Positions 1 through 55,833 of a stretch of 64,000 nt of DNA are shown here, piece after piece. Positions within the stretch are counted from its first letter, which is position 1. The number at the start of each line of letters is the position of its first letter. The notes beneath the pieces were generated by a model that was given only the letters and a program-made list of their open reading frames with translations, was not told the DNA's origin and did not search any database. Position numbers and translations under genes: made by a program. Source of the DNA: an uncultured Chloroflexia bacterium (GTDB taxonomy: Bacteria > Chloroflexota > Anaerolineae > B4-G1 > SLSP01); the NCBI GenBank assembly GCA_963751345.1, contig CAVVUS010000022.1, positions 64,001 to 128,000 of the forward strand, read 5' to 3'.

Positions 1-1527
1 TGGGAGGATACCTGTCGCGGCTTCGACTTCTCCAGAAAGCTGGCTAACGAGGAACTGGATGCCCGGCTGCGGCGCCTCGTCGCGATGATCGACACGCGCG
101 GTGAGGGTGTGGCACTCGTCGTCCTCAATACGCTGGGCTGGCAGCGCACCGACGTCGTCTATGCCACGGTCGGCTTCACCGAGGCAACTGCGGACGGCCT
201 GGACGTGCTTGGGCCGGACGGAAGGACGGTCCCCGTCCAGGTGCTGGAGGCTGAGCGCGCCGACAACGGGGCCCTCATACGCGCAAAGGTGGCCTTTGTC
301 GCGGAGGATGTGCCGGCCCTGGGGTATGCCGTGTATCGCGTGGTTCCGCGTCCGGGTGTGAGGAACGATCGCCCGGCACGCGGCGACAGCATTCTCGAAA
401 ACGAGGTCTGCCGCGTGGAGGTCGACCCTGCGGACGGGACCATTCTCAGCCTGGTCGACAGGCGCTCCGGGTGGGATGCGATCGACGGCAGGGCCAATGT
501 CGTGGCGATGGAGGAGGACCACGGCGACCTATGGGAGCCTTACCGCGGCCTCAACGGTGGTCAAGCCGTCACGATGAAGGAGCGCCATCCCGCGCCGCAG
601 GGGTCCGCAGCGCTTAGCGGAACCGCCGGCGTCATCACCCACGGGCCGGTGTTCTCTGAGTTCTGCGGTGAGGACGGCAACCTCAGCACGCGGATTCGCC
701 TCTTCGCCGGCCTGCCGCGGGTTGAGATCCATACCCGACTTCTCAACACCGACAGCCACGTCCGCTACCGGGCCTGCTTCCCGACCTCCATCCGCCACGG
801 GACGAGCTTTCACGAGATCCCATTCGGCGCCGTGCCCCATCCCGAGGGTGTCGAGTGCCCGGCGCAGAACTGGATTGATCACGGCGACGGCAGCAAGGGA
901 CTGGCACTGCTCAACCGTGGCCTTCCGGGCAACAACGTCGCCGATGACGTCGTGCTGCTGTCGCTCCTGCGCAGCGCCACCATCGGCGGGTACGGCTATG
1001 GCGGGGGCTACGAGCCGGGGATGGGATCCGACACAGGGCTGGAGCTCGGCAAGCACTTCGCATTCGACTACGCCCTGCTGCCCCACGCCGGTACATGGGC
1101 CGAGGCCGGGATACCCCGTGAAGGGATGGCCTTCAACCACCCCCTCATCGCCGTGACGGCTGCGTCCCGACCCGGTGTACTTCCGCGTCGCTGGGGTTTG
1201 CTGGAGTTGGATAGTCCGGGTATTCTGGTCTCGGCGCTCAAGCCTGGAGAGTCGGGCGACATCGTGCTGCGTCTGGCGGAGGCCGCGGGGCAATCGATCG
1301 AGGGGGTCAGCCTCCGGCTGGCGGTGGATGTGATCTCCGCCGAGGAGGTAAACCTGATGGAGGATCCCGGTCGAGCGCTCGTCCTTAGTGACGGGAGCGT
1401 GCGCCTGGACTTCGGGCCCTTCGAGATCAAGACCATCGTGCTGCGAATGGCCCACGGCGACGGGAGTGGCCCGAGGCTCCCAGATGCAGAGAGGCCGGAC
1501 CACGATTGCGGCGTCACCGGCCCGTGA
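1..1527 (+). CDS. Alpha-mannosidase (GH38), C-terminal part, truncated by the window start
   Basis: Frame is open from base 1. Contains the GH38 C-terminal motifs NTLGWQRTDVV, DVPALGY, HEIPFG, LSLLRS, LVSALKP, VLRLAE and FGPFEIKT. Confidence 0.85.
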   Translation, partial: WEDTCRGFDFSRKLANEELDARLRRLVAMIDTRGEGVALVVLNTLGWQRTDVVYATVGFTEATADGLDVLGPDGRTVPVQVLEAERADNGALIRAKVAFVAEDVPALGYAVYRVVPRPGVRNDRPARGDSILENEVCRVEVDPADGTILSLVDRRSGWDAIDGRANVVAMEEDHGDLWEPYRGLNGGQAVTMKERHPAPQGSAALSGTAGVITHGPVFSEFCGEDGNLSTRIRLFAGLPRVEIHTRLLNTDSHVRYRACFPTSIRHGTSFHEIPFGAVPHPEGVECPAQNWIDHGDGSKGLALLNRGLPGNNVADDVVLLSLLRSATIGGYGYGGGYEPGMGSDTGLELGKHFAFDYALLPHAGTWAEAGIPREGMAFNHPLIAVTAASRPGVLPRRWGLLELDSPGILVSALKPGESGDIVLRLAEAAGQSIEGVSLRLAVDVISAEEVNLMEDPGRALVLSDGSVRLDFGPFEIKTIVLRMAHGDGSGPRLPDAERPDHDCGVTGP

Positions 1528-1603
1528 TGGGGCCGAGGACAAGAATCCATGATCTCGGGCAGGCATCGACTATTGCGGCACACCACAGAGGAGCTGAGTG
1601 CAG

Positions 1604-4513
1604 ATGACGAACACGAGACAACTAGAGCGAATGGTACACGTGAGCGAGATGTGGCAGAAAGCGGCCTGGATGCGAATCCGCTCCCAGATAAGGTTCGCCG
1701 AGCACCTGGCGGCGACGGATGAAGAGCACGAGGCAGCGTGGCAGACCGTGGTCGGAGACGCCAAGGACGCAGCTGCGGAAGCCCTTGCGTCCGCAGGGGT
1801 CGACTGGCCCGCAGTGGTGAGCCGGATTGAGGCCATCCTGGCCCCGATGACGGAAGCTGCCAAGGCACGCACGCTTTACCTGGCGGGCCACGCGCACATC
1901 GATATGAACTGGATGTGGTCGTGGCCCGAGACGGTATCGGTGACCCTCGACACCTTCCGCACGATGTTCGACCTGCTCGAGGAGTTCCCCGAGTTTCACT
2001 TCTCGCAGAGCCAGGCCAGCGTCTACGCGATCGTCGAGACCTATGCACCGGAACTGATGCCTCGCATCGCCCACTACGTGAGAGAGGGGCGTTGGGAGGT
2101 GACGGCCAGTCACTGGGTGGAAAGCGACAAGAACATCGTATCAGGCGAGGCACTCGCCCGCCACATCCTCTACACCCGCGCCGCGATGGCACGCTTGTTT
2201 GGTCTGAGGCCTGAGGATGTGGCCATCGACTGGTCGCCTGACACCTTCGGTCACGCGGCCACCGTGCCCACCTATCTGCGTCAGGGCGGCGTGCGGTATC
2301 TCTATATGCATCGGCCGGGCATCGAGCAACAACCCGTTCCGGAGGCGTTCTGGTGGGAGGCTCGGGACGGCGCGCGCGTCCTGGTGCGCAACGACCAGAG
2401 ACGCGGTTACGGCGGCACCATCCAGCCCGAAAGCGTCATCGAGGCAATGGAGGCGATGCAGCAATCGGTGGGGCTCGACTTCGCCATGCTGGTGTACGGC
2501 GTGGGCGACCACGGCGGGGGTCCAACGCGGCGCGATCTGCTCGCCGCACGCGAGATGAGCAAGTGGCCAATCTTCCCCACCCTCAAGTTCGCGCCCACGC
2601 AGGCTTTTTTCCGCAAGCTGGAACAGGACGGCGGGGATCTGCCGGTCCTGCGAGGCGAGCTGAACACCGAATTCGCCGGGTGCTACACGACGCAGTCGCT
2701 GATCAAGCGCGCCAATCGCCTCGCCGAAGCGCGCCTCGCCGACACCGAATTTGCGGCGGTCGCTGACCGGCTCGCGACGGGCGCTGCCTACCCCGCCGAG
2801 ACCCTGGCCGAGGATTGGCGCCGGACGCTCTTCTCACACTTCCACGACATCATCCCCGGGTCTGGCGTGCGCGACACGCGCACGTACGCCCACGGCCACT
2901 TCCAGGAGACCGCGGCCAGCACGGCGGTGGTCACAACACGGGCACTGCGGCACGTCGCAGCGACCGTGAACACTGCCGCACTCAGCAGCGCCAGCGATAC
3001 CGGTGCGGCACTTCCGGCGTTGTTCACGTCCAGCGGGCAGGGCTCAGGCGCGGGAATCTATGCCGAGGAGGGGCGCATCAGTGTCGCGGACCGCCACGGG
3101 CTGTCGCCCGTTCGCCCCTTCGTGATCTTCAACTGCGACGGCGGTGGACCGGCACGAGGTGGTGCGATTGACCCTTTGGGACCGCGAGCCGGCCGGCACG
3201 CCGGTCCCGTTTCACAGCAAGGTCTTCGAAGCACGCGACGCCGCCGGCCAGCCGCTGGCAGCACAGGTCGTGGGCCAGAGCGCAGCGTGGGGGCACCAGA
3301 ACCAGACGTTGGCCGTGCCGGTGACCGTGCCCGCCTTGGGCTACACCACAGTCGTGCTCTCTGAGAGCATGGCGCCGCCTGCGGTCGTTCCGGGCGCCTG
3401 GCTCACCCGCCACAAGCACCACTGCGTCTACTCGAGCGTGGAGCGCGATGTGATCGGGCTGGAAAACGATCTGGTCGCTGTTGCCTTTGACAAGCAGACC
3501 GGGCGGATCGTCTCCTACTTCGACAAGGTGGCGAACGCGGAAAGGGTCGACGCCTCGACGGGTGGCATAGGCTTCGAGTTCAGCGTGGAGCGCCCGCATA
3601 CCATGACCGCGTGGGTGATCGAGAACAGCGGGCCAACCGAGTATCCGGCACTCCGGCAGGTCACCGAGGTCGCGGACGGCCCGTACGTTGCCGAACTGAC
3701 GTTGACCTATGGCATACGGGCCTCCACGATCAAGGCACGGTACGCCCTCCACGCGGGTGACGCCGCGTTACACATCGACCTGGAGATCGACTGGTTCGAG
3801 CGCGGCGATGCCGAGACCGGCGTGCCGAACCTGCGCCTGGCTGTGCCCACGGCGCTCGAGGACCCGACAGCGCGGTACGAGATACCTTTCGGGGCCCTAG
3901 ACCGGGCGACGGCCCGTGACCAGGAGGTGCCGGCTCTCCGTTGGGCCTGCCTCTCGGGCGCGTCGAGGACCGGGCCGCGTCCGTGGTTCTCTTCAACGAC
4001 TGCAAGCACGGCCACGCCGTGGATGGGGCGACGCTCCGGCTGAACCTGATCCGTTCGAGCTACGATCCTGATCCCTTGCCTGAGATCGACCGACACCTCG
4101 TGCGGCTGGCGCTTCTCGCGACCGAGGGCGTGCCGACCGATGCGACACTGATGGCTCGCGCTGCAGCACACAACCAGCCGCTGCTGGCTATCGGCACCGA
4201 CGTCCACGACGGACGGCTGCCGGTTTCGCAGAGCCTGCTGACCGTGAGTGGCGCCGATGCGGCGCTCTCCGGCCTCAAGTGGGCGGAGTCGGGCGAGGGA
4301 CTGGTTGTGCGGCTGACCAACTCAAGTGACGAGCCGGCTACCGCTCAAGTGGGATGTGCGGAGATCCTTGGAAGCTTGGAATCGGCGCAGGCGCTCGATC
4401 TGATGGAGCGTCCCCTCGGCGCTGCATCGCCCGCGCGGGCAGGCGCAGTATCGCTCACGGTCCCTGCCCACGGGCTCAGCACCTGGCTGATTCGGGTAAC
4501 CGATAACCCTTGA
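1604..4513 (+). CDS. Alpha-mannosidase (GH38), split by two frameshifts (~3140 and ~3960)
   Basis: N-terminal motifs HAHIDMNWMW, WSPDTFGH, GVGDHGGGPT and FHDIIPG. ORFs 3144..4043 (YEIPFG, QEVPALRW) and 3941..4513 (LRLNLIRSSYDPDPLPE, LKWAE) continue the same family. GAGGAG lies upstream. Confidence 0.85.
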
Positions 4514-4577
4514 CGGGCCGGATCAGATAGAGCCAATCCCGCAAGATCGGAACGACCTGCTAAGTCGCAGAATGCAG

Positions 4578-4611
4578 ACCGGGGGACAGCGCTGACGCGC
4601 CGTCCCCCGGT
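4578..4611. terminator. GC-rich hairpin between the convergent mannosidase and tRNA/hypothetical genes
   Basis: accgggggacagcgc-tgac-gcgccgtcccccggt forms a 15-bp stem with one mismatch. Confidence 0.6.
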
Positions 4612-4628
4612 TCAAGTTGTGCGCCGCT

Positions 4629-4705
4629 TGGTACCCCAGAGAGGACTTGAACCTCTAACCTTGTGCTTAGAAGGCACTTGCTCTATCCGATTGAGCTACT
4701 GGGGC
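4629..4705 (-). tRNA. tRNA-Arg(TCT)
   Basis: Reverse complement reads GCCCCAGTAGCTCAATCGGATAGAGCAAGTGCCTTCTAAGCACAAGGTTAGAGGTTCAAGTCCTCTCTGGGGTACCA: cloverleaf, anticodon loop CTTCTAA, T-loop GTTCAAG, encoded CCA. Confidence 0.97.
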
Positions 4706-4718
4706 GAAAAGTGCGCCG

Positions 4719-5174
4719 CTATCTTCCCTTGACAATCGGGCGCAGGCCCAGGCGCACAGTCCGGCCTGCCAACACCCGCAGGACCTGCTCGGGCCGGTGT
4801 CCCACGAGCGGCGCTAGTTTTCGCGACGTTAACGGCTGATTTGCGTTGCTCAAGAAAGCTCGAAAGACGGCCTCGATCAGGGTCGGAGCCTGCAGAACAT
4901 AGCCCGGCTGCTGGCTGCAGTGCGTGGTAATCACGTATTGCAGGCCATCGACGGGGCGCACCTCGCCGGTTTCCCAATCCACCCAATCGATCTCGTCACC
5001 CATGGGCTGCCCTTCAAAGGCTTCCCGGTGCTCCGGGCAGAGATGCGACACTAGCTTGATATTGACGTCCAGCCCCTCGTGCTCCCACCAATCGAAATCA
5101 ATGTGGAAAGGTGTGTCCAGCGTGGGTTTGATGAACTGAGTAAGTGCGGGGTCCGGTGGAAGCGCGACCATCAT
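4719..5174 (-). CDS. Hypothetical protein with possible Cys/His metal site and C-terminal winged helix
   Basis: 151-aa ORF whose start overlaps the upstream stop (ATGA). Motifs HLCPEH...HCS and TLIEAVFRAFLSNANQPLTSRKL. Confidence 0.75.
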   Translation of the reverse strand: MMVALPPDPALTQFIKPTLDTPFHIDFDWWEHEGLDVNIKLVSHLCPEHREAFEGQPMGDEIDWVDWETGEVRPVDGLQYVITTHCSQQPGYVLQAPTLIEAVFRAFLSNANQPLTSRKLAPLVGHRPEQVLRVLAGRTVRLGLRPIVKGR

Positions 5175-6736
5175 TCCTCCCCTCGATAGGCCCAGTAGTT
5201 GTCACCCAAAGACACGTAACGTGGCGAGGTCACCAGCGCGGCGAGCATCGGCGCCGGGGGCACCCGACGCATCAGGTTCAACACGCTGTACAGTGTCATC
5301 GCGTGCACCGCCCGCTGCAAACTGAGTCCCGCCAGACCGCTGAAAGCGCGCTCCAACAGGGATTCCAACGATGCCCGGTTGAACTGGTCACGCAAGGCAT
5401 CCACAGCCGACGGATCGTCCACTGCAATCGCTGCCAACTCGTCAAACTCGCACGCAGCCGGCACGCGGGTCACTTCAAAAACGAGATTGTCGCCTTCCAC
5501 GGTGACGGTGCGCAGCCACTCACGCCGTTGCGACTTGATCTGCCGCACGCTGACGCGAACGAGCCCGGGTTCCTCGCCCTGGGCCATGTCAACGTACGCC
5601 CCGACAAAGACCTGCTTGCTCTTGTACCACTCCGCCAACCCATAGACGTAGCGACCGCTTCGCACTACCCAGCCGGGGAACTCGCGGCCCGTCTGATCGT
5701 CCACGAACGTGAATCGGATGCGGTCGGTAACCCGCGCCGTCGGGAAGAAGTTCGCGACGTGTGAGGCCAGTGGCAGCGTGCCACTGCGCCAGTGGGGATA
5801 GTTGAGCACGATGGTGACCGGCTCACCGTCTGCCACCGCTACCGGCAGCTCCGACCACTCATCGGCGACCTGCTGCTCAAGCGAGAGCATCACGCTGTCC
5901 AGGACCTGCCGGTTATGAGGGATCGGGATATATTGTAGCTGCCGGGGCGTCTCCAGGACGCCCTTTGGCTCCAGGCTGCGCAGGTGCCACAGGGCATAGC
6001 CCGCCGGCCCCACCTCGTCGAAGCGGTGATCGCGCAGGAGCGTGTACTCCAACGAGAAACGCTGCAAAGGTTCGGAGATCTCATCAGGCAGGTCGATCTC
6101 GTTGAGCAGGTCATCGGTGCGCACCGGGCCGCCGCCCGCCATATCGAGCATCGCCTCGACAATATTGATCTGGCCGGGCGATATGTCGATGAGCAGGGCC
6201 CGCACGAACCACATAGGCCCGATACTCACGAACTGCGCGCTGGTCTCCAACGCCCGCTGCAGCTTGGAACGAATCTCGTCCCCATACGCTGCGTAGATCT
6301 CCTCGGCTGTGACCTCATCGTCGGGCAGATACGTCGCAGTATTGAGCGGATGCGGCTGCGCGAGATCGGCAGCAAACTCACGCTCCCCGTCATCCTCGAT
6401 CTTGAGACTGACCACCGAGAAAGGCTCGTACTCCGGGTTTCGTCCCGGGCGGACGCCCACGACCTCACCCTTGATGTTGCCCAAATGAGCCAGGATCACA
6501 TTGTCGCCGACTTCATAGCTCTCGCCCGGGCGATAGATGCGGCCCTGCGAGAGAGTGTCTTCCAGGAGGCTCGTGACCTGTTCGAACCGGTAACGGGTCA
6601 ACTCAGATGCGAGTTCGTCCAGCGTGTGGGGTCGCTCGCTTTCAACGAGGAAGTTGACGAGGTGCTCAAGGTCCTTTGCCAGAACGGTGAATTGCTCCCA
6701 ATACTGATCGTTGCTCAACGTGCTACTAGTGCTCAT
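5171..6736 (-). CDS. Hypothetical protein with repeated winged-helix-like segments
   Basis: 521-aa ORF with protein-like composition and a TATAAT-type promoter upstream; see findings. Confidence 0.8.
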   Translation of the reverse strand: MSTSSTLSNDQYWEQFTVLAKDLEHLVNFLVESERPHTLDELASELTRYRFEQVTSLLEDTLSQGRIYRPGESYEVGDNVILAHLGNIKGEVVGVRPGRNPEYEPFSVVSLKIEDDGEREFAADLAQPHPLNTATYLPDDEVTAEEIYAAYGDEIRSKLQRALETSAQFVSIGPMWFVRALLIDISPGQINIVEAMLDMAGGGPVRTDDLLNEIDLPDEISEPLQRFSLEYTLLRDHRFDEVGPAGYALWHLRSLEPKGVLETPRQLQYIPIPHNRQVLDSVMLSLEQQVADEWSELPVAVADGEPVTIVLNYPHWRSGTLPLASHVANFFPTARVTDRIRFTFVDDQTGREFPGWVVRSGRYVYGLAEWYKSKQVFVGAYVDMAQGEEPGLVRVSVRQIKSQRREWLRTVTVEGDNLVFEVTRVPAACEFDELAAIAVDDPSAVDALRDQFNRASLESLLERAFSGLAGLSLQRAVHAMTLYSVLNLMRRVPPAPMLAALVTSPRYVSLGDNYWAYRGEE

Positions 6737-6820
6737 AAGCCTCGCAATCTGGACCCGCCAACAATCAATGTAGGCTTGTTTTCATACCACCAGTGGGCAT
6801 TATACCAGGACTCAACCCTA

Positions 6821-6847
6821 TTGACAACTGTCACACTCTGTTACACT
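6821..6847 (+). promoter_or_regulatory. Sigma70-type promoter for the DUF2007-trmFO operon
   Basis: TTGACA (6821-6826) and extended -10 TGtTACACT (6839-6847); spacer is only 15 nt. Overlapping palindrome tgaca-ac-tgtca. Confidence 0.45.
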
Positions 6848-6899
6848 AAGGCCCCCGGCAAAGCGGGGCAACAGGAATCACGCGGAAAGGAATATCCGT

Positions 6900-7244
6900 A
6901 TGGGAAGTGATGATTGGGATGCAGGGCTCGTGACGGTCTACGTGACGCACGGTATGCTGCGCGCCAACGTGATCAAAGGTTTGTTTGAGAGCGCGGGAAT
7001 TCCGTCGATGTTGACGTATGAGGCGGCGGGTCCTGCCATCGGGCTGACCGTCGACGGCCTGGGGCGGGTCGAGATCAGGGTTCCTGCAAAGTGGGCGCAG
7101 GAGGCACGCGACCTGCTGGAGGCGGAGCCGGTCGATACGGCAGAAAGCGCTGCGGACGAAGACGACGATGGGTTCGATGACGATGAGTTCGACGAGGATG
7201 AGTCTGACGAGGATGCCAACACCTCCCGCCAAGGAGCATCGTGA
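6900..7244 (+). CDS. DUF2007-like putative signal-transducing protein with acidic tail
   Basis: Pattern [14 protein letters not shown]...VEIRVP...ARDLL followed by an Asp/Glu tail; GTGA overlap with trmFO. Confidence 0.75.
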
Positions 7245-12269: not shown

Positions 12270-14208
12270 CTAGTTGACCTCGCGGTACTCACCTTCGACA
12301 ACGTCAGGGCCTTCCCCGCCGCTGCCGCTTTCCGGTGCGTGACCGTAGCCGGGGCCCACATTCGGGCCGGGCATCGGGCCGGTCTGAGCGCCGCCCTGGT
12401 CATAGGCCTGTTGGCCCATCTTCATCGACACGTCGCGGAGTTCATCCATCTTGCGGCGAATCGCTGCCGCATCCTCACTCGTATCCTTGAGCGTCCGCAG
12501 ATCGTTCATCAGACCTTCGAGCTGCGCACGGATATCGCCCGGGACTTTCTCACCGAGGTCCTCCATACTGCGCTCGATCTGGAAGATCATGCCGTCCGCC
12601 TCGTTCCGCGTATCCACCAACTCCTGGCGCTTGCGGTCCTCCTCCTGGTGCAACTCGGCCTCTTCAACCAGCCGATCCACCTCGGAGCCGCTCAGGTTCG
12701 TGCTTGCCGTAATCGTAATATGCTGCTCACGGCCCGTGGCCTTGTCCTTCGCCTGCACATTCAGGATACCATTGGCATCGATATCAAAGGTGACCTCGAC
12801 CTGCGGGACCCCACGTGGTGCCGGCGGGATACCGTCGAGCCGGAACTGGCCCAGCAGCATGTTGTTCGCCGCCATTGGGCGCTCTCCCTGGTAGACCTTG
12901 ATGTCAACCGCGGTCTGATTGCTCTCAGCCGTGGTGAAGGTCTCGCTCTTCTTGACGGGCACCGTCGTGTTGCGCGGGATTAGGTTGGTCATTCGACCGC
13001 CCAGCGTCTCCACACCCAGCGACAGAGGCGACACATCCAGCAACAGAATATCGGTCACGTCGCCGGCCAAGAACGCCAGCCTGAATCGCCGCGCCTACAG
13101 AAACTACCTCGTCAGGGTTGACACCCTTGTGAGGCTCTTTGCCGTTCGTCAGCGAGCGCACCAGCTCCTGGATCATCGGCATACGCGTGGCGCCACCTAC
13201 CAGGACGACCTCATTGAGATCTCCGGCAGCGATCTTCGCATCCGACAAAGCCCGCTCGAAGGGATGCCGGCACCGGTCGACCAGGTCAGCCGTCAGCTGC
13301 TCGAACTTCGAGCGCGTCAGCCGAATCTGAAGGTGCTTCGGACCGGTCGCATCCGCAGTAATGTACGGCAGATTGACCTCGGTCTCCATCATCGTGGAGA
13401 GCTCGATCTTCGCTTTCTCCGCGGCCTCACGCAGCCGCTGCATGGCCTGGCGATCCTTGGACAGATCCACGCCCTGCTGCTTTCGGAACTCCTCGAGCAT
13501 CCAGCGCACAACTCGCTCGTCCCAGTCATCGCCACCCAAGTGTGTATCGCCGTTGGTGGACTTCACCTCGATCAGCCCTTCGCTGACCTCGAGGATCGAT
13601 ACATCGAAGGTGCCCCCACCAAGATCGAAGACGAGGATGGTCTCATCCTTGGCCTTGTCCAGACCATAGGCCAGCGCAGAAGCCGTGGGCTCATTGATGA
13701 TTCGCATCACCTCGAGGCCTGCGATCTGCCCTGCATCCTTGGTCGCCTGGCGCTGGCTATCGTTGAAGTACGCAGGCACCGTGATGACGGCCTGTGTCAC
13801 CGGCTCACCAAGATAGGCCTCGGCATCCTTCTTTAGCTTCTGGAGGATCATCGCCGAGATCTCCTGCGGTGTGTAGACTTTATCCTGCACCGGCACACGC
13901 ACGCGCGCATCATTCTGAGGCCCCGCCACGATATCATACGAGACCATCTCACGGGTTACTTCGACCTCGGGCTCATCCGCGCGACGTCCCATCAGTCGCT
14001 TCACCGAGTAGATCGTGTTCTCGGCGTTGACCACAGCCTGACGTTTCGCAGGATCCCCGACCAAGCGATCACCATTCTTGGTGAACGCCACTACCGAAGG
14101 GAGTAAACGACGCCCCTCCGCCGTCGGAATAACGGTGACCTGCCCACCTTCCATCACTGAGACAACGGAATTCGTCGTCCCCAAGTCAATGCCTACAATT
14201 CTGGCCAT
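12270..14208 (-). CDS. dnaK: Chaperone DnaK (Hsp70), one +1 frameshift near 13070
   Basis: [38 protein letters not shown]; continues in ORF 12270..13070 with [11 protein letters not shown] and [14 protein letters not shown]. Confidence 0.96.
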
Positions 14209-36720: not shown

Positions 36721-37903
36721 TCAGGGGATCTTGGCAAGGCTTCGCGGCAATCCTACCAGGAGCGCGACCGGCCCCAAGCAGAGCAGCCACATCGCTGCCT
36801 GCAGGTCCACGCGCTGGGCGATCACTCCCAATGCCCACGGCAACAGGGCTCCCACTAAGCCGAAGACATTGTACACCGCAAGCAGGGTGCCGCTTCGCCC
36901 GGGCATCGTCGCGTAGAGTCGCGCTTGGAGGATCGAGTACCATCCGGCATTGAAGAAACCAAGGAGGGCCAGCACCCCGAGCTTCGCCCCAAACGAACGC
37001 AGCCCGAGAAAGGCGACAAATAGGACAAGCTCAACTACGGCGCTCAACCGTAGATACCGGATGCCATCCACGTGGTCGAGCAGGCGGATCAACAGGAAAT
37101 CACCCAGAAGACCTACCCCGGTCCACACCGCAACAGCCATGGAAGCTTGCGCGGCAGAAGTCCCACCGACGTCCACGAAATAGAGCGCTAGAAATCCCAG
37201 AAGGACGTCCAGCATCAGGTCAGAAAACTGCAGCAGCACCAGCCAGCGCAGCACCTCGCCACGACGTAGCGCCGACGGCACCGCCTTCAGACTCTCGATC
37301 AAGCCTGGCTGCGCCTCAGCAGCTGCGGCAGGACCCTCAGGCCGGGACGTCACCGGGGGACGAGATCTCCAGGCCAGGCCCAGCATCACGACCGCTACCA
37401 CAGAAGTCGCTGCAAACATCGCGCGCCAGCCCAAGACTCAGCGCTGCCAGACCTCCCAGGGCGAGAGGGCCCAGGACTACACCAAGGGACCCCGCAAACG
37501 TCCAGCGGGCCATGTTCTTCTCCCGCTGTAGTGGGTCGGAATCCATCAAGGTTGCCTGGGAGAGGCTCACAAATGCACCCGAAGCAGGGCTGAGCATCGC
37601 GAAACTGACCAGCAGCCATCCATAGCTCCTGCTGGTGCTTACCAGGAGCAGGGCCAGTGCGAAGATCAGACCACCTCCGAGGATCAGGGCCCGACGCCGC
37701 CAAACATCCCCCAGGATACCGAAGATAGGTTCGGTGAGGCCCGACACGATGCGTGGAAGCCCCAACAGGACCCCGATCTGGGCATACGTCAGCAGAAGAT
37801 CCCTGCGCAGGAGAGGCCAGGCGGCCTCCCGCGACCCGTAGACAAACTCGTCGAGGAACTCAATGGCCAGGAGGACGATTAGGAACCGGGCACCCGTGCC
37901 CAT
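36721..37903 (-). CDS. MFS transporter, frameshift near 37430
   Basis: Two hydrophobic half-ORFs; motif A-like GILGDVWRRR. Confidence 0.82.
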
Positions 37904-43132: not shown

Positions 43133-46100
43133 CTACTCCACTTCCCAGAGCCGGCCCGAGGGAAGTCGCATGAAAAGAACGGGACTCTCGACCCCCGGGA
43201 GATCGGCGCTGAGAAGCGCGTCGCGCGCCTGATTGAGGGCACGATCTGCCATGCCGTGGCGGGCGAGGCCGTCATAGAAGGCCTGGACGATGCGCTGGGC
43301 CGAGCGCATCTGGACGCGATTGCGCATCGCGACGACCGCCGGGACCCCTGCCTCGACCAAGTTGACGGCGAGCCCCGCCAATGCGTGACCATCTGGGCCG
43401 ACGGCGCTCTGGCAGACCGACAGGTAGACTAACTGGGGCTGTCCCCCCTGATGTGCCAACATGCGGCAGAGCAAATGGCCCGCAATGGCACGGGTGTTGC
43501 CGTGGGCATCCTCGAGGAGTAGATCCATCCGCTCCTGCCGGGCGTTGAACCGGCCGTGGCCGACAAGGTGGAGCCAGTGGTATCCCTCAATCATTGCGCG
43601 GCTGAGGGCCTCCAGCGTGATCGGTGGCGGCAGGAAGTCGAGCCGTATCTGATCGGGGTCTATACCCGAGAAGGCCCGGGCCAGCAGATACTTCTCCATC
43701 TTTACGTCAAGAGGCGGGAGATCATATCGCTCGGCGAGATCACCGGGATTCGCAATGGCACCGAGCACGCGGATAGGCCGGTCCACCGTGGGTGCTCCCA
43801 ATGGCTTCTCGACAGGCAGATAGCGCGAGAAAGGCGTCGCCTCGCACGCAGACAACATCACCTCGTCATCGTGAAGCAGCTCCCAGGGAAGACGTTGGAG
43901 CACCGAGACGTCATCATCGATGCGTAGCCGGATCCGCCGCAAAGCTCCCTGTTGTTGGGCCTGCCCACGCGCAACGTGCCACGCCTTACGCACCGCGCCA
44001 TTTCGGAAGAGGCTCTCGAACAGGTAATGGCCGTCCGCCACAAGATCACCTGTCGGAGACCAGTCAACGATGGCCCGCGACAGCTGACCGCCGGAGAAGA
44101 CCTGGCCGCCGTTTAGCGTCACCTCCACGCTGTAGTCGCGAGTTCCATGCCCGATCCGTATCTCCAGATCGACGGTGGGTATGGCCAAAGAGCTGCCGGC
44201 CCACTCCAGGGCTCCGCCGCTCTCCGAAAGGATCCGAAGGGTGCCCGGCACCCGCTTTGCCGTCTCTTTGGCCACCGGAAGATAGATCGTCTCCTCGCGA
44301 CGATGAGGCTCGCCATTGCGGTCGAGGTAGTCGATCTGGAACCGGAGGGGGACGGAGTCGCCGTGGGCCAGCGGCTTGACGTCGAGCACTTGCTCCTCGC
44401 TTTGCCCGACGGGAAGCGCGGCCAACGTCTGGGTCTCTGCAATCTGCCCCTCGAACTGCTCGCCTGCGACGCGGATGATCAGGTTGCGTGCCAGACCGTA
44501 CCCGCCGTTACGAATGACAAGCCGCAGGCGGGACCACGCATCGAAGACTAGGCCCGCGTGCTGCGCGTCCACCACAATCAGCGGCAGTCCGAAGACCTGT
44601 GCATAACGCCTGCGCGCCTCGGCGGCCCTCTCGATGGCGGACACCGAGTCAAAGAGATGTGCTGCCGTCGCCCAGGCCTGCGCTCGCACGTCGGCGCTCG
44701 ACTCATCATCGCCCAGCTGCTCGGCATGGCGACACCACGCTTCAGCCGCACGACGCGGGTTGTTCTGGGCCTCCCAGGTCCGGGCAGCTTTTGACCACCG
44801 CCCGGCGCTTTCGTGATCCTCGGCCGAAACGGGATAGGTCAGACAAGTCACCTCGCCGGTACAATCTGACCACGATAGCATAAGGTCCCTCAGCATCCCC
44901 CTCTGTCAGCGCTGGAGAGGTCTTTGTCTCCTGGGTCATCGTGTGCTGCCACAGGAGCTTGCCGGTATGCAGATCGATGCCGTAAAGGTGCCGGTCGTTG
45001 CCCGCGACACACAGGACGTTGTCGGCCACGACCGGTGCGGCGGTGACGTAGGCCCCGGTATGGAAGACCCACTGAGGTAGGCCATCCTCAGGGCGCAATG
45101 CGTAGACGCCATCTTGCGCGCCGACATAGAGCCATTGGCCATCGGTCACAGGTGTGGTTAGCCGCTTGCCGCGCGGCCCAACGGGCGATTCCCACATCAG
45201 ACGGCCATCCTGGCGCGCCAGCGCCAACACGATTCCGGAACTGAGAACTGCGACGACAGTCTCCCCAATCACAAGGGGCGTCTGGCTGATCTGCACGCCG
45301 GATAGAACCCCCTCGACCTCATAGCGCCACAGGATATCGCCATCCAAGGTCAGGGCCACCAATGAGGGAGCGCGACACGGGACGTAGATGGAGGTTGCAT
45401 CACACGCGGGGGCTGACAGCGCGACATCGACCGGCAGGGATACCGCTGAGAGCTGTTCGCCATCCCTCGCATCCAGGATGAGCACAGAACGGCTGTTCCC
45501 GGTTACCGCTGCCACGCTCCCCAACACGGCCGGCGCGGAAATCTGGTGCACCTCGAGTTCGGTGCTCCACAAGATTCGGCCGGAGCCGTCCACCGCGATC
45601 AGGGCACTCTCACCCGGCAGCCGCCCCAGGCTTGGGAGGCTGACCAACACACTATTCCCGTCGGTGCGCACCATCCCGCCGACGATTGCGTTAGGGAAGC
45701 GCTGCTCCCATATCACCGCACCCGAGGTCACGCTGAGTGCTCGCAGAACGCCGCCCGGCGATCCCCGCCCTGACTCTTGGGATGCGATGAGACATACATC
45801 GCCCAGAACTACCGGCGCCGCCATCGGCTGCCCCGGCAGCGCGTATGACCAGACGGGGTAGGGATCCTGAACAGGGAGAGATGCCGGAGACGCCTCTTTG
45901 GGCGTTGCCCACACCGTGGACGCAGTTTCGGTTTGGCGCCGGACGATAGGAGGTGGCATTGGCTTGAGTTGGAGATCGTCCCGGACCTGGGGAAGGTAGG
46001 CAACGAGCTCTGCGATTCGCTGCCGTCTCTCAAGGTAATCGACCATCCCCCTGACGAGATCGAGTTTGTTCGCAGTACCGGGCAGGGTTTCCGCGTCGAT

Positions 46101-46238
46101 TTCGAGGTCGAAACAAAGCGTTCGCAGCTCGCTGATGGTGAACCGTTGCACCAGGAGCCGACGCAGATAAGTTAGGTAGCCTCGATCGGTTCGTCCCGCA
46201 GTATCAGACATGGAAAGCTTCTCACCAGTAAATGTCAC
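43133..46238 (-). CDS. EAD7/death-like domain + PQQ-type beta-propeller + helical/Ig-like region + CHAT (caspase-like) protease, +1 frameshift near 44870
   Basis: N-terminal LRRLLVQRFTISELRTLCFDLEID.ETLPG...LERRQRIAEL; repeated LYAL...G..W blades; CHAT motifs LPWELL, LHLVGHG, YLSVCQS, GVPAVVAM. Confidence 0.8.
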
Positions 46239-53253: not shown

Positions 53254-53306
53254 AGACACACGAACCTTCGCTAGGCTTCGGAAGCCTAGCGAAGGTTCGT
53301 GTGTCT
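53254..53306. repeat. Perfect 26-bp-arm palindrome containing two REP-like units
   Basis: agacacacgaaccttcgctaggcttc-g-gaagcctagcgaaggttcgtgtgtct, between convergent cysK and the GH35-like gene. Confidence 0.85.
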
Positions 53307-55833
53307 ACACGCCGGCCATCTTCTCGGATAACCGCGCCAGCAGCGCACCGGCCTCCAGTCGTGCCACGCCTAGGCCGGGCTTCGCCCCCCGGGTCCACTG
53401 GGCAATAAGCAACTCGTTGGGTCCGGTGCGACGCAGCACGCCGTCGGGCAGCCAGAGCCTGCGCTGAGGCTCTTGGGGGTACGCCGCTCGCCCGATCAAC
53501 ATCCCGTTCAGGTATACGTAACACCTGGCGGGGGTCTGCTCCAGCACGAGATAGAGAGGCACCTCAATATCCCGCGGCAGGAAGAGATCGAAGCGACTGT
53601 GATGCCATGTGATGTCCGCGGCTCCCTCCTCGCTGATAAGGGCCCAATCGGCAAATCCGTAGAATCCCTGGACCCGGATCTCTCCTGACAGCCCCGCTCG
53701 CACACACCACCGCGTCACCGGCTCTCCATGGAGGTGACACGAGACGAGGCCATGGGGTTCGGAAGCGGCATCCCAGGGCGTCGCTCTCCCCTGGTTCTCG
53801 ACGAGAATCGACAGGACATTGTGGGGCAACAAGTGTCGCGAGGGCAGCGGCAGTGTCTTGGGTACCGCCGGTCCGAACTCGGGCGCAGAGTTGAGCGAAG
53901 CGATATGGGCACCGTTCAGGAAGAGATCACAGGCATGACGACACGCCAGCGTCACAGCCACGGGCGCGCCCCCGAAATGAGCCCGATACCATACGAAGCC
54001 ATAGTCAATGCCCTGGCGCTCCATAGCAGGCGCCTCACCAGGTACCATCGTTCGCCAGTCCTGATCGTCATAGTCGGGCAGGGCCTCCGGCGCTCCGGGT
54101 CGTGAAGCCCAGGTGAGCACGGGCACGGTGACCGGCTCAGGCGCTGGCCACGTAATGGGTGCCAGCCAAGTATGTGGGTCGCTACCACGCCAGGGCCCCC
54201 AGCGGTACCCGAACCCTCTGCGCGCTGCAAGGAACCGATACGAGCCATCCCGCTGGGGCAACACGAAGTCGGGGCCGATGACGACGCCACGCGCCGGCTC
54301 ATCGGCCGTCGTAGCCCAGGATGCCGGGTAGGCCGGCGTCTTGCGCCACGTGTCATCCATCGGCCATGTACGTGCCGAAAGATGCGGATCGAGGGCCAGC
54401 AACTGCAGGGTAGCCTGCTCACCGTCCAGCACGACCGACCCAAGCCTGCCTGGATCGAAGTGGACCAGAAGCCCGCCCTCCAGCCGCTCGACGTAAGCAC
54501 CTCCTCGGCGGTGTCGCGGGCGGAAGTCCGGCGGCAGGAGTACCTCGCCGCCTTCGTCGTTTTGGAGCACGAGCAACTCCCGTCCGGCCACGATAGTGTG
54601 CAGTATGGGCTCGAGGCTCGTGCCGATCAGGCGGCTGTCAGCAGCCGGCGGCTACGGCAACCGCCAGTTAAGAGGTATGACCACGGCCGAGCCCGCGCCG
54701 ACGGCAATATCCTCCACGACGACCGCGTCATCACCGGCGCCCAGCGACACAGCGACAAACGCCCCACCGTGACCACCCGCGAGGAACACGACCGCCCCGT
54801 CAGGGCCGCTGCGCGCGCCAATCAGATGTTCCGCAGGTGTAGCGTGCACATCGTAGGCAGGGCCGGAGTCGGCGAGGACGTCGCCCATCGTCTCAAGGGA
54901 CAGCGCGACACGGCGGGCGCCGTAGTAGGCCTCCCCCAGCGCCCCGCCCTCCCCGACGAGGGTGCCGGCAACCGGAGTCGCAAGCGGGCCGGCGGTGCCC
55001 CACCATCCCCACCGGGTACCGGTGTGCGCTGGCGTAAGCGCGGAGGCCGCCATTCCGTGGGCGAACGGCGTCGTGATCGACAGCCGTAGGTCCGCTTTGC
55101 GGGTGCCGTCAGGGGTCTGTGTCTGTTGGACGCTTGCCCCGAGTGAATCGCCGGTCACGTCCACCAGCGCGAGCCCGCGGACGTCGAGAATGGCGTCACC
55201 AGCCGGATCTACCACCAGCGGTAGCAGGTCTTCGCCCCAGGCCAGGTCGGCCGCTTCGGGCACGACACAGGGCACGCCTATGCCTCTCTCACGAAGAAGG
55301 CCCAGGAGCGGCCCCATCCAGGGAGTTAATGATCGTCCGTTGGTGCAGATGCCAGGATCCACGATCGTAGCGATGAGATTCGGGCGATTCCGCAGGAGCG
55401 GGAGTAGCCGGTCCCACCAATCACTGAGATGTCGTACAAGCGCCGGCGGAAGCTCGTCGGATAGACGAGTCCCGCACACCCCCTGCATGCTCGGTAAACG
55501 ATGGATCCAGGCCGGAATCCCCCCGCCATCGAGAGCCGCTCCAATCCAGGGACCGACGTGCGGTATGAGCCAAAGCCCGGCCTCCTCGACCTCGTCGAAG
55601 AGATGCGGGAGGTCGCGTGGGCCGGTGAAGTCATGGAAACCCACGTCCGGGCTGTGGTAGGCCCAGGGGATGGGGATCACGATGGCGTTGAACCCCGCCA
55701 TACGGACGCGATCCAACATGGGACGCCACAGATCGGGATGGGGAAGACGGAAGTAGTCGAGGACGCCCGCCTGAATCAGCGCGGGCTTACCGTCGATGCT
55801 GATGGCCTCAGGCGTGACGATGACGTTTGGCAA
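53305..55833 (-). pseudogene. GH35 beta-galactosidase-like gene interrupted by an in-frame TAG (54652-54654), catalytic motifs degenerate
   Basis: DYFRLPHPDLW, GFNAI..IPW.YH, DFTG.RDL, GG.P.W; C-terminal jelly rolls (GFVWYR, LFLNG, VENQG, YLNG.LIGR). ORFs 54652..55833 and 53305..54591 are in the same frame. Confidence 0.7.

Follow-up and report, generated by a model that had tools for sequence, protein, structure and literature searches.

The DNA-binding pseudobarrel, a fold of seven strands capped by helices, is common to the B3, EcoRII-N and BfiI-C domains and has been documented on duplex DNA (PMC3973309). Winged helices of the HARE-HTH type, which carry an extra helix inside the helix-turn-helix (HTH; PMC11037411), have been proposed to discriminate modified DNA (PMC10853773 and PMC11037411). 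Here we compare these systems with a pair of genes in a stretch of 64,000 nucleotides (nt) from an uncultured Chloroflexia bacterium (contig CAVVUS010000022.1, positions 64,001 to 128,000), the whole of which is referred to as the window:

5171..6736, minus strand: large gene, an open reading frame (ORF) of 521 amino acids (aa)
4719..5174, minus strand: small gene, an ORF of 151 aa

Our preferred explanation, held tentatively and at somewhat less than even chances, is that the products form a nuclease-free two-subunit complex, spread throughout the Anaerolineae, that binds nucleic acid, most likely duplex DNA. An earlier note on this DNA, made from the letters alone, had proposed a two-subunit DNA- or RNA polymerase (RNAP)-binding complex with RNAP-delta/HARE-HTH-like winged helices and a B3-like barrel, and that interpretation is, overall, partly supported. 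A record-level literature search turned up no published description of the pair or its family. The folds are of known kinds; the novelty is in how the domains are arranged, in a B3-like barrel being found in a housekeeping context and in the constant tRNA linkage. The pair is a strongly conserved and apparently highly expressed operon without a family in Pfam, NCBIfam or PADLOC.

The two genes meet at GGAGGAATGATGG, where the TGA of the large gene shares 4 nt (ATGA) with the first ATG of the small gene; an alternative second ATG of the small gene would give a 1-nt overlap with the same TGA. The coordinates, the ATGA overlap and all of the peptides quoted in the earlier note are correct when checked against the sequence, the peptides of the large protein being FLVESERPHTLDEL (residues 29-42), YEVGDNV (74-80), ALETSAQFVSIGPMWFV (162-178), AMLDMAGGGPVRTDDL (195-210), TLLRDHRFDEVGPAGYALWHLRSL (232-255), LNYPHWRSGTLPL (311-323) and ALVTSPRYVSLGDNYWAY (500-517). 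Three segments of the large protein had been described as following the pattern L...(R/Q)(F/Y)..(I/V/L)G...W, and these are real. The expression [RQ][FY]..[IVL]G.{2,7}W is matched three times by the 521 aa and never by the 17,156 aa of the 42 other ORFs of the window, and the threefold motif is therefore beyond chance. Its key residues are invariant or nearly so, with F169 present in 62 of 63 family members and W176, F177, R238, F239, V242, G243, W250, L510, G511 and W515 in all 63. Each segment forms the beta-hairpin wing of a predicted helix-strand-helix-helix-strand-strand unit in an AlphaFold2 (AF2) model.

The AF2 model of the large protein, built on a 63-row alignment (predicted local distance difference test [pLDDT] 87.4, predicted template modelling score [pTM] 0.74), has three winged helices, the first of them split by a beta insert, and a seven-stranded barrel. 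A fourth winged helix is predicted in the small protein (pLDDT 84.4, pTM 0.78), so that the winged helices proposed from the sequence reappear in the models. What we describe as shown comes from sequences or from these models, and not from experiment. The predicted parts, in the order in which they are transcribed, are as follows:

6551..6709, minus strand: winged helix 1, N-terminal half (residues 10-62; helix 20-33, a short strand, helix 39-63; AF2)
6332..6550, minus strand: beta insert in winged helix 1 (residues 63-135; strands 79-82, 88-97, 107-113 and 117-123)
6182..6331, minus strand: winged helix 1, C-terminal half (residues 136-185; helix 144-165, wing 169-172 and 175-178, QFVSIGPMWF)
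5963..6181, minus strand: winged helix 2 (residues 186-258; helices 187-199, 207-211 and 222-235, wing 239-242 and 249-252)
5537..5821, minus strand: predicted B3-like pseudobarrel (residues 306-400; seven strands and three short helices; AF2)
5417..5536, minus strand: long beta hairpin 3' of the barrel (residues 401-440; strands 405-414 and 417-426)
5180..5383, minus strand: winged helix 3 (residues 452-519; helix 457-469, strand 476-478, helices 479-489 and 494-503, wing 507-511 and 514-517)
4890..5174, minus strand: N-terminal domain of the small protein (residues 1-95; net charge -13)
4719..4889, minus strand: C-terminal winged helix of the small protein with the stop codon (residues 96-151; isoelectric point [pI] 12, net charge +8)

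The core order helix, strand, helix, helix, beta hairpin is common to all winged helices, and in the AF2 models it fits residues 20-178 (with the insert), 187-252 and 457-517 of the large protein and residues 99-146 of the small one. When the four winged helices were compared profile against profile, the probabilities ranged from 0.3 to 40% and none was significant, though several alignments were in register. Within winged helix 1 the insert sits, at residues 79-123, between helix 2 and helix 3, and looks like a small SH3/Tudor-type barrel, as had been suggested from the sequence. The beta insert itself is present in the model, with four strands of at least three residues where an SH3/Tudor barrel has five, but the SH3/Tudor identity depends on a single fold lead, the PWWP domain 4ld6 (E 0.21, prob 0.66), for which no query range is given and which we place on the insert ourselves.

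The large protein is acidic (pI 4.7, net charge -32; family mean pI 4.8), and winged helices 1 and 2 each have a net charge of -8 or lower, that of winged helix 2, with its invariant R238-F-D-x-V-G...W250, being -8. Its only basic part is the barrel, with a pI of 9.6. Of nineteen alignment columns that are at least 90% lysine or arginine, four (R317, R359, R362 and R398) fall within the barrel and another four (K401, R404, R409 and R424) within the hairpin. Neither protein has a significant match in Pfam or NCBIfam or any match among PDB chain sequences, and no catalytic domain, nuclease included, was found in either with Pfam, NCBIfam and PADLOC, as expected of the nuclease-free pair that had been proposed. 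In the ESM Atlas the large protein retrieves the Chloroflexota clusters of its own family alone and the small protein no named match, and a Foldseek comparison of the large model with viral structures gave no coherent matches. A DUF3135 match of the large protein (E 0.0055), which recurs at residues 430-462 in 29 of the 63 members (best E 4e-4), is below the cut-off and was judged uninformative.

A B3/EcoRII-N-like barrel had been suspected in the middle region of the large protein, and the fold matches of the model support this. Foldseek comparison of the large model with the PDB returned, at the top, almost exclusively plant B3 DNA-binding domains, the best being VAL1 (5yzy_C; E 7e-3, prob 1.00, target template modelling [TM] score 0.66 over 109 columns), followed by 6j9a, 6fas, FUS3 (6j9b), NGA1 (5os9), TEM1 (7et6), At1g16640 (1yel), ARF1/2 (4ldv/8oj1), LEC2 (6j9c) and VRN1 (4i1k). 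Overall the B3 rows have a prob of about 1.0, target TM scores of 0.58-0.69 and E values from 7e-3 to 0.2, and after them come EcoRII (1na6/3hqf), NgoAVII (4rd5/4rct) and BfiI (2c1l). The output carries no query ranges, and the match is placed on residues 306-400 from the secondary structure there: seven strands (307-310, 320-322, 339-346, 352-358, 363-365, 380-386 and 392-397) and three helices (313-318, 325-328 and 368-374), which fit the pseudobarrel as described in PMC3973309. There is only indirect support for the barrel binding duplex DNA through its predicted N-arm and C-arm in its pI and in the conserved R317, R359 and R362. It thus shares with B3, EcoRII-N and BfiI-C the seven strands and helix caps, as predicted, and a basic conserved surface, but it is joined neither to a nuclease nor to a plant-type transcription-factor architecture, and sits instead between the winged helices of an acidic protein encoded in the core genome. 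Barrels of the B3/EcoRII type are known in bacteria from restriction enzymes, and their occurrence in a nuclease-free housekeeping protein bears on the recruitment of DNA-reading modules for cellular roles and on the origin of the plant B3 domains.

The small protein would supply a second basic surface, in its C-terminal winged helix (helices 99-109, 117-124 and 128-135, strand 144-146 in the AF2 model), for which HTH support is weak and consists of WH_GDS1 matches in 23 of 61 members and a CRP/CAP-type HTH. The model had no Foldseek match in the PDB at E<=1e-3 and the matches no coherent theme, the N-terminal domain being without a fold match. A Cys/His cluster had been pointed out in the small protein, and it is present: H44 and C86 are invariant (61/61), and C46, H49 and H85 are jointly present in 51 of the 61 members and jointly lost in the other 10. 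Residues H44, C46, H49, H85 and C86 are a probable metal site, and the joint disappearance of three of them suggests that one subclade has dispensed with it.

Both proteins belong to large families. By word-indexed search the large protein has 427 relatives and the small one 1,101; the relatives listed are nearly all of query length, and every one with a name is a 'hypothetical protein' of an Anaerolineae or Chloroflexi metagenome-assembled genome (MAG), with consecutive locus tags for the two genes in nine MAGs. A full hidden Markov model scan with the large protein over 1.84 billion cluster representatives retrieved 823 at E<=1e-3, of which 221 reach E<=1e-30. Column identity averages 67% among 63 large sequences and 69% among 61 small ones. 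In species-representative genomes a relative is encoded by at least 571 of 599 candidate stretches, and the locus counts given here are for the best 80 of these (at least 571) loci, which come from 80 different assemblies. Their labels are Anaerolineae, Anaerolineales, Thermoflexales/Thermoflexia and Chloroflexota, with one Chloroflexia, and they include Anaerolinea thermophila and Thermoflexus MAGs (e.g. L078 for the former). The Anaerolineae are abundant in sediments, bioreactors and hot springs, and to our knowledge they are almost untouched genetically.

The two genes had been predicted to occur together, and in 76 of the 80 loci the large gene is followed immediately by the small gene in the same orientation. 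Three of the four departures are contigs that end at the large gene and the fourth is a true absence, in L077, where the large gene (192-1766, plus strand) is followed by 1.8 kb of sequence with a secreted protease-like ORF, and neither a small gene nor a tRNA gene is present. The synteny that the earlier note wished to see checked is therefore there, and the copy number of each gene is one within the window. An alternative is that there is no complex, and that these are two independent genes that adjoin in a small genome and owe their linkage only to one strong promoter; the locus that carries the large gene alone fits this, as does the finding, in itself uninformative, that the only longer form of the small protein, a single 299-aa protein on a 1,054-nt contig, is joined to a photolyase-type domain and not to the large protein. 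However, of the 77 loci with enough downstream sequence 76 keep the adjacency, even at identities as low as about 40%, whereas trmFO and htrA are kept nearby in only 20 of 80. The stop and start codons of the two genes also commonly overlap or nearly abut, with a gap of no more than 20 nt in 51 of 59 loci and an overlap in 22 (heuristic start calls, with 59 of the 76 pairs placed and two evident mis-calls). We regard independent neighbours as very unlikely.

In the complex that we prefer, the large subunit would be an acidic scaffold with, in order, winged helix 1 split by a small beta barrel, winged helix 2, the basic barrel with its hairpin, and winged helix 3, and the small subunit would consist of a novel acidic N-terminal domain, with a probable and dispensable metal site, and a very basic winged helix. 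Duplex DNA would be held by the conserved arms of the barrel together with the basic winged helix of the small subunit, the acidic N-terminal domain of which would dock onto the large subunit. The acidity of winged helices 1 and 2 makes it unlikely that they contact DNA directly, and they may be protein-contact modules, with RNAP one candidate partner. A near-consensus promoter would drive an operon ending in tRNA-Arg(UCU), and since the pair would share this promoter with the tRNA gene we propose that its dosage follows stable-RNA transcription. The large-subunit module would have a common origin with the non-enzymatic portion of a Chloroflexota N6-adenine DNA methyltransferase fusion (see below). 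The sequences and AF2 models show the predicted folds, the pattern of charge, the conservation, the synteny, the promoter and the methyltransferase fusion; that the proteins form a complex, that their ligand is DNA, which proteins they contact and what role they have in the cell is what we infer.

Several observations weigh against this explanation. The case for a heterodimer comes from gene arrangement alone, one locus (L077) carries the large gene without the small one, and the structures are AF2 predictions. No Foldseek match of either model reaches E<=1e-3, and since Foldseek gives no query ranges the placement of the barrel match is deduced. The likeness to B3 is in the fold only: the Pfam B3 and EcoRII-N models match none of 79 barrel segments, which sets the barrel apart from those domains, and a barrel profile compared with PDB sequences retrieves no B3-type chain. 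The net charge of -32 is unusual in a DNA-binding protein, R317 of the barrel arm is not kept in the outgroup branch that includes the methyltransferase fusions, and the steady link to a tRNA gene could point to RNA instead of DNA.

The delta subunit of RNAP has a long poly-acidic C-terminal region after its winged helix, and the consensus wing motif of delta and HARE domains is of the type RF..G...W. An alternative is that the pair is a delta-like RNAP accessory factor, in which acidic winged helices of the HARE-HTH type dock on RNAP and modulate promoter selectivity or recycling. The wing motif of the large protein, RF..(V/L)G...W, is threefold and invariant, winged helices 1 and 2 are acidic, and a strong conserved promoter is what an abundant factor would have. 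The delta model TIGR04567 is the most recurrent weak NCBIfam match, found in 9 of 63 members (best E 0.037, all far below the cut-off) on the wing of winged helix 3, and the fold matches include tandem-winged-helix RNAP subunits (Pol III 8iue_P, E 0.025; 9fso_F). However, the specific likeness to RNAP delta and HARE-HTH that the earlier note had proposed is not shown. The window protein scores 12.7 bits with TIGR04567 against a cut-off of 42 (E 0.11, residues 500-518 in winged helix 3), and Pfam HARE-HTH (PF05066) matches none of 63 large proteins at E<=1 and one of 61 small ones (E 0.23). No delta structure is present among the 49 Foldseek matches listed for the large model, and no delta or HARE chain is retrieved from the PDB by profiles of winged helices 2 and 3 or of the C-terminal domain of the small protein. 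The extra helix of HARE-HTH is not seen by DSSP in winged helices 2 and 3; at its position winged helix 1 has the beta insert and winged helix 2 a 10-residue loop. Neither protein has a poly-acidic C-terminal tail, the large protein stopping 4 residues past the wing of winged helix 3 and the small one ending in its basic winged helix. Given the sub-threshold matches, the lack of a delta chain among the PDB and Foldseek results and the absence of an extra helix from winged helices 2 and 3, the delta/HARE label is, from the sequences, a lead and not membership. The large protein also differs from delta in combining three winged helices and a barrel in one 521-aa chain, and the host of the pair belongs to the Chloroflexota and not the Firmicutes. 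We consider a delta-like accessory factor unlikely.

Other proteins with several winged helices in one acidic chain that makes protein contacts are the Pol III RPC34-type subunit, ScpB and TFIIE-beta, and the likeness to these is weak (8iue_P, from the Pol III pre-initiation complex, as above; ScpB 3w6j_C, E 0.12; Pfam TFIIE_beta, E 0.23 at residues 23-47 in winged helix 1); a further weak winged-helix row is ArsR (E 0.29). They differ from the large protein in having no counterpart to its barrel and beta insert, and the pair has no linked SMC or kleisin gene.

The pair's constant association with tRNA-Arg(UCU) has no ready explanation. The features concerned are these:

4629..4705, minus strand: tRNA-Arg(TCT), 13 nt after the small-gene stop and the only tRNA in the 64-kb window
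4579..4610, minus strand: GC-rich hairpin 3' of the tRNA, in a folded 64-nt stretch (4565-4628)
6799..6827, minus strand: near-consensus sigma-70-type promoter (TTGTCA, 17 nt, TATAAT, with an extended -10 TG)

A tRNA-Arg(tct) gene lies downstream on the same strand in 61 of the 77 loci scanned (51/60 and 10/17; three loci in which the contig ends inside the large gene were left out), and the link is found in every main clade of the family tree, the deepest included (FastTree, 78 large-protein sequences from the window and 77 loci; three of the 80 loci, with short matches, were omitted). In 21 of 46 loci the tRNA starts no more than 50 nt from the small-gene stop (heuristic stop calls). Rfam identifies the tRNA alone between 4300 and 7300. 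The promoter matches the consensus at 11 of 12 hexamer positions and lies about 62 nt 5' of the large-gene ATG, and TTG[TA]CA-N15-19-T[AG]TAAT is found upstream of the large gene in 59 of the 76 loci having at least 200 nt there. It is often nearly base-identical, as ATTTGTCAA-N14-TGGTATAAT, across proteins that are about 40-45% identical. Conservation of this kind is unusual for a protein gene and would fit a stable-RNA-type promoter serving the tRNA. A consensus terminator scan called no terminator-like site between the genes on their strand, and it missed the hairpin 3' of the tRNA because the tail is U-poor; the 64-nt stretch has a minimum free energy of -40.3 kcal/mol (z -4.55, with 0 of 200 shuffles as stable). 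The hairpin is likely to be the end of the operon, and because no intergenic terminator was called and a strong hairpin follows the tRNA, a single transcript likely covers both genes and the tRNA. The co-transcription proposed earlier is thus likely, with the 13-nt spacer and the recurrence of the link as further points in its favour. We note two other elements. One is TA(T/G)AGT(G/T)TGC, which recurs in many loci about 20 nt upstream of the -35 (near 6850 in the window), between the -35 and the ribosome-binding site of a divergent DUF2007 gene, and which could be an operator or part of a divergent promoter or leader. The other is a 10-nt direct repeat, AGCGGCGCAC, flanking the tRNA-Arg gene on the minus strand (4706-4719 and 4619-4628), which may be chance in GC-rich DNA or a trace of processing or duplication.

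These features also allow an RNA-directed role, in which the pair binds, chaperones or processes the co-transcribed tRNA-Arg(UCU) or recruits a modification enzyme to it. Beyond the depth and closeness of the link, the tRNA methyltransferase gene trmFO is nearby in 20 of 80 loci, and the genes that in some loci stand 3' of the small gene, toward the tRNA, include one for a beta-grasp protein (5/80) and one resembling nucleoside deoxyribosyltransferases (11/80). Winged helices can bind RNA, and the weak fold matches include Egalitarian-RNA and SelB complexes. However, the pair lacks a catalytic domain, duplex DNA is the ligand on which the pseudobarrel has been documented (PMC3973309), and the enzyme fused to the module in a distant branch is of the DNA type. 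In 16 of the 77 loci there is no tRNA-Arg(tct) in the available DNA, some of these contigs ending soon after the small gene, and the linkage may merely reflect use of a strong stable-RNA promoter. An RNA-directed role seems improbable to us.

The first of the genes just mentioned encodes a ThiS/Ub-Mut7C/TGS-like beta-grasp protein ending in GG and is found 3' of the small gene in L056, L065, L068, L073 and L079 (ThiS 35 bits against a cut-off of 22.5). The second encodes a nucleoside 2-deoxyribosyltransferase/SLOG-like protein of about 145 aa and lies just 3' of the small gene in L038, L041, L045, L046, L053, L056, L058, L064, L065, L066 and L071, being between it and tRNA-Arg in L045, L046, L053, L056, L058, L065 and L071; its Pfam matches (E 2e-4 to 5e-3) are below the cut-off. 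The two domains are in one open frame in L056, with no stop between them.

A connection to DNA is suggested by two fused relatives, P0332 (979 aa) and P0334 (1,105 aa), which match the whole 521-aa profile (positions 8-517, E about 1e-79) and have a C-terminal N6_Mtase domain (E 4e-24 and 2e-26 respectively), the best matches of the fused methyltransferase being type I DNA methyltransferase and MAD2 models (E about 1e-30). The P0334 cluster has five members, one of them on 13 contigs. Both fusions form a separate long branch of the tree with P0335 (671 aa), the cluster of which has a member labelled Chloroflexi; P0335 and its cluster mate P0396 (984 aa) have no family-model match, and of the four outgroup proteins aligned only P0332 and P0334 showed the methyltransferase domain. 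All four keep 45 of the 79 invariant residues of the family, including all three wing motifs and the barrel core. The fusions thus share the full-length large-subunit module, and differ in their C-terminal extension of 430-560 residues with the methyltransferase domain. The linker of P0334 (about 550-870) and the C-terminal extensions of P0335 and P0396 have no match in Pfam, NCBIfam or PADLOC.

This relationship raises the alternative that the pair is a domesticated restriction-modification reader of DNA methylation or another base modification, with an epigenetic role in replication, repair or transcription. The type-I-like N6-adenine DNA methyltransferase fused in the sister branch favours it, as do the B3-like barrels of the bacterial restriction enzymes EcoRII, BfiI and NgoAVII and the discrimination of modified DNA proposed for winged helices of the HARE-HTH type in PMC10853773 and PMC11037411. 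However, neither the window nor the 80 loci have a methyltransferase or nuclease linked to the pair, no defence-system model matches (PADLOC), HARE-HTH membership is not shown, and nothing in this analysis bears on modification specificity. The chance that it is such a reader is small. A more elaborate version would make the pair a lineage-wide epigenetic reader coupling DNA adenine methylation to transcription or replication, in which a B3 barrel and RNAP-contacting delta-like winged helices were exapted from an N6-adenine methyltransferase reading module and are dosed with tRNA-Arg(UCU), as a functional analogue of GcrA or SeqA; this is highly improbable. Either RNAP binding or the reading of DNA methylation, if true, would amount to a new level of gene control specific to the lineage.

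The setting of the pair is a housekeeping one, neither mobile nor a defence island, as the core-genome position assigned to it earlier implied. The window neighbours are GH38, TrmFO, HtrA, Usp, DnaJ, GrpE, DnaK, MinCDE, RodA, GltX and KsgA, no nuclease or methyltransferase is among the conserved neighbours in the window and the 80 loci, tblastn against 72,556 plasmid and 50,697 phage records gave no relative, and PADLOC has no family for either window protein. These absences, together with the restriction of the methyltransferase fusion to a distant branch, distinguish the pair from restriction-modification and anti-phage systems. An upstream gene on the opposite strand encodes a DUF2007 protein and is kept in 52/80 loci, well ahead of trmFO (20/80):

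6900..7244, plus strand: divergent DUF2007 gene (114 aa; PF09413, E 8e-7)

The DUF2007 protein has a strongly acidic tail, and the end of its gene overlaps the trmFO start (7241).

Elsewhere in the window several genes are split into overlapping ORFs, the GH38 alpha-mannosidase into three pieces and DnaK, an MFS transporter and a GH35 galactosidase into two each, which suggests assembly indel errors or pseudogenes; unlike these, the large and small genes are intact. The split genes occupy four segments:

1598-4513: overlapping ORFs
12270-14208: overlapping ORFs
36721-37903: overlapping ORFs
53305-55833: overlapping ORFs

At 43133-46238 on the minus strand a CHAT-domain protein adjoins a protein with Effector-associated domain 7 (EAD7) and a PQQ-like beta propeller, a gene pair that is conflict-system-like and is unrelated to the large and small genes.

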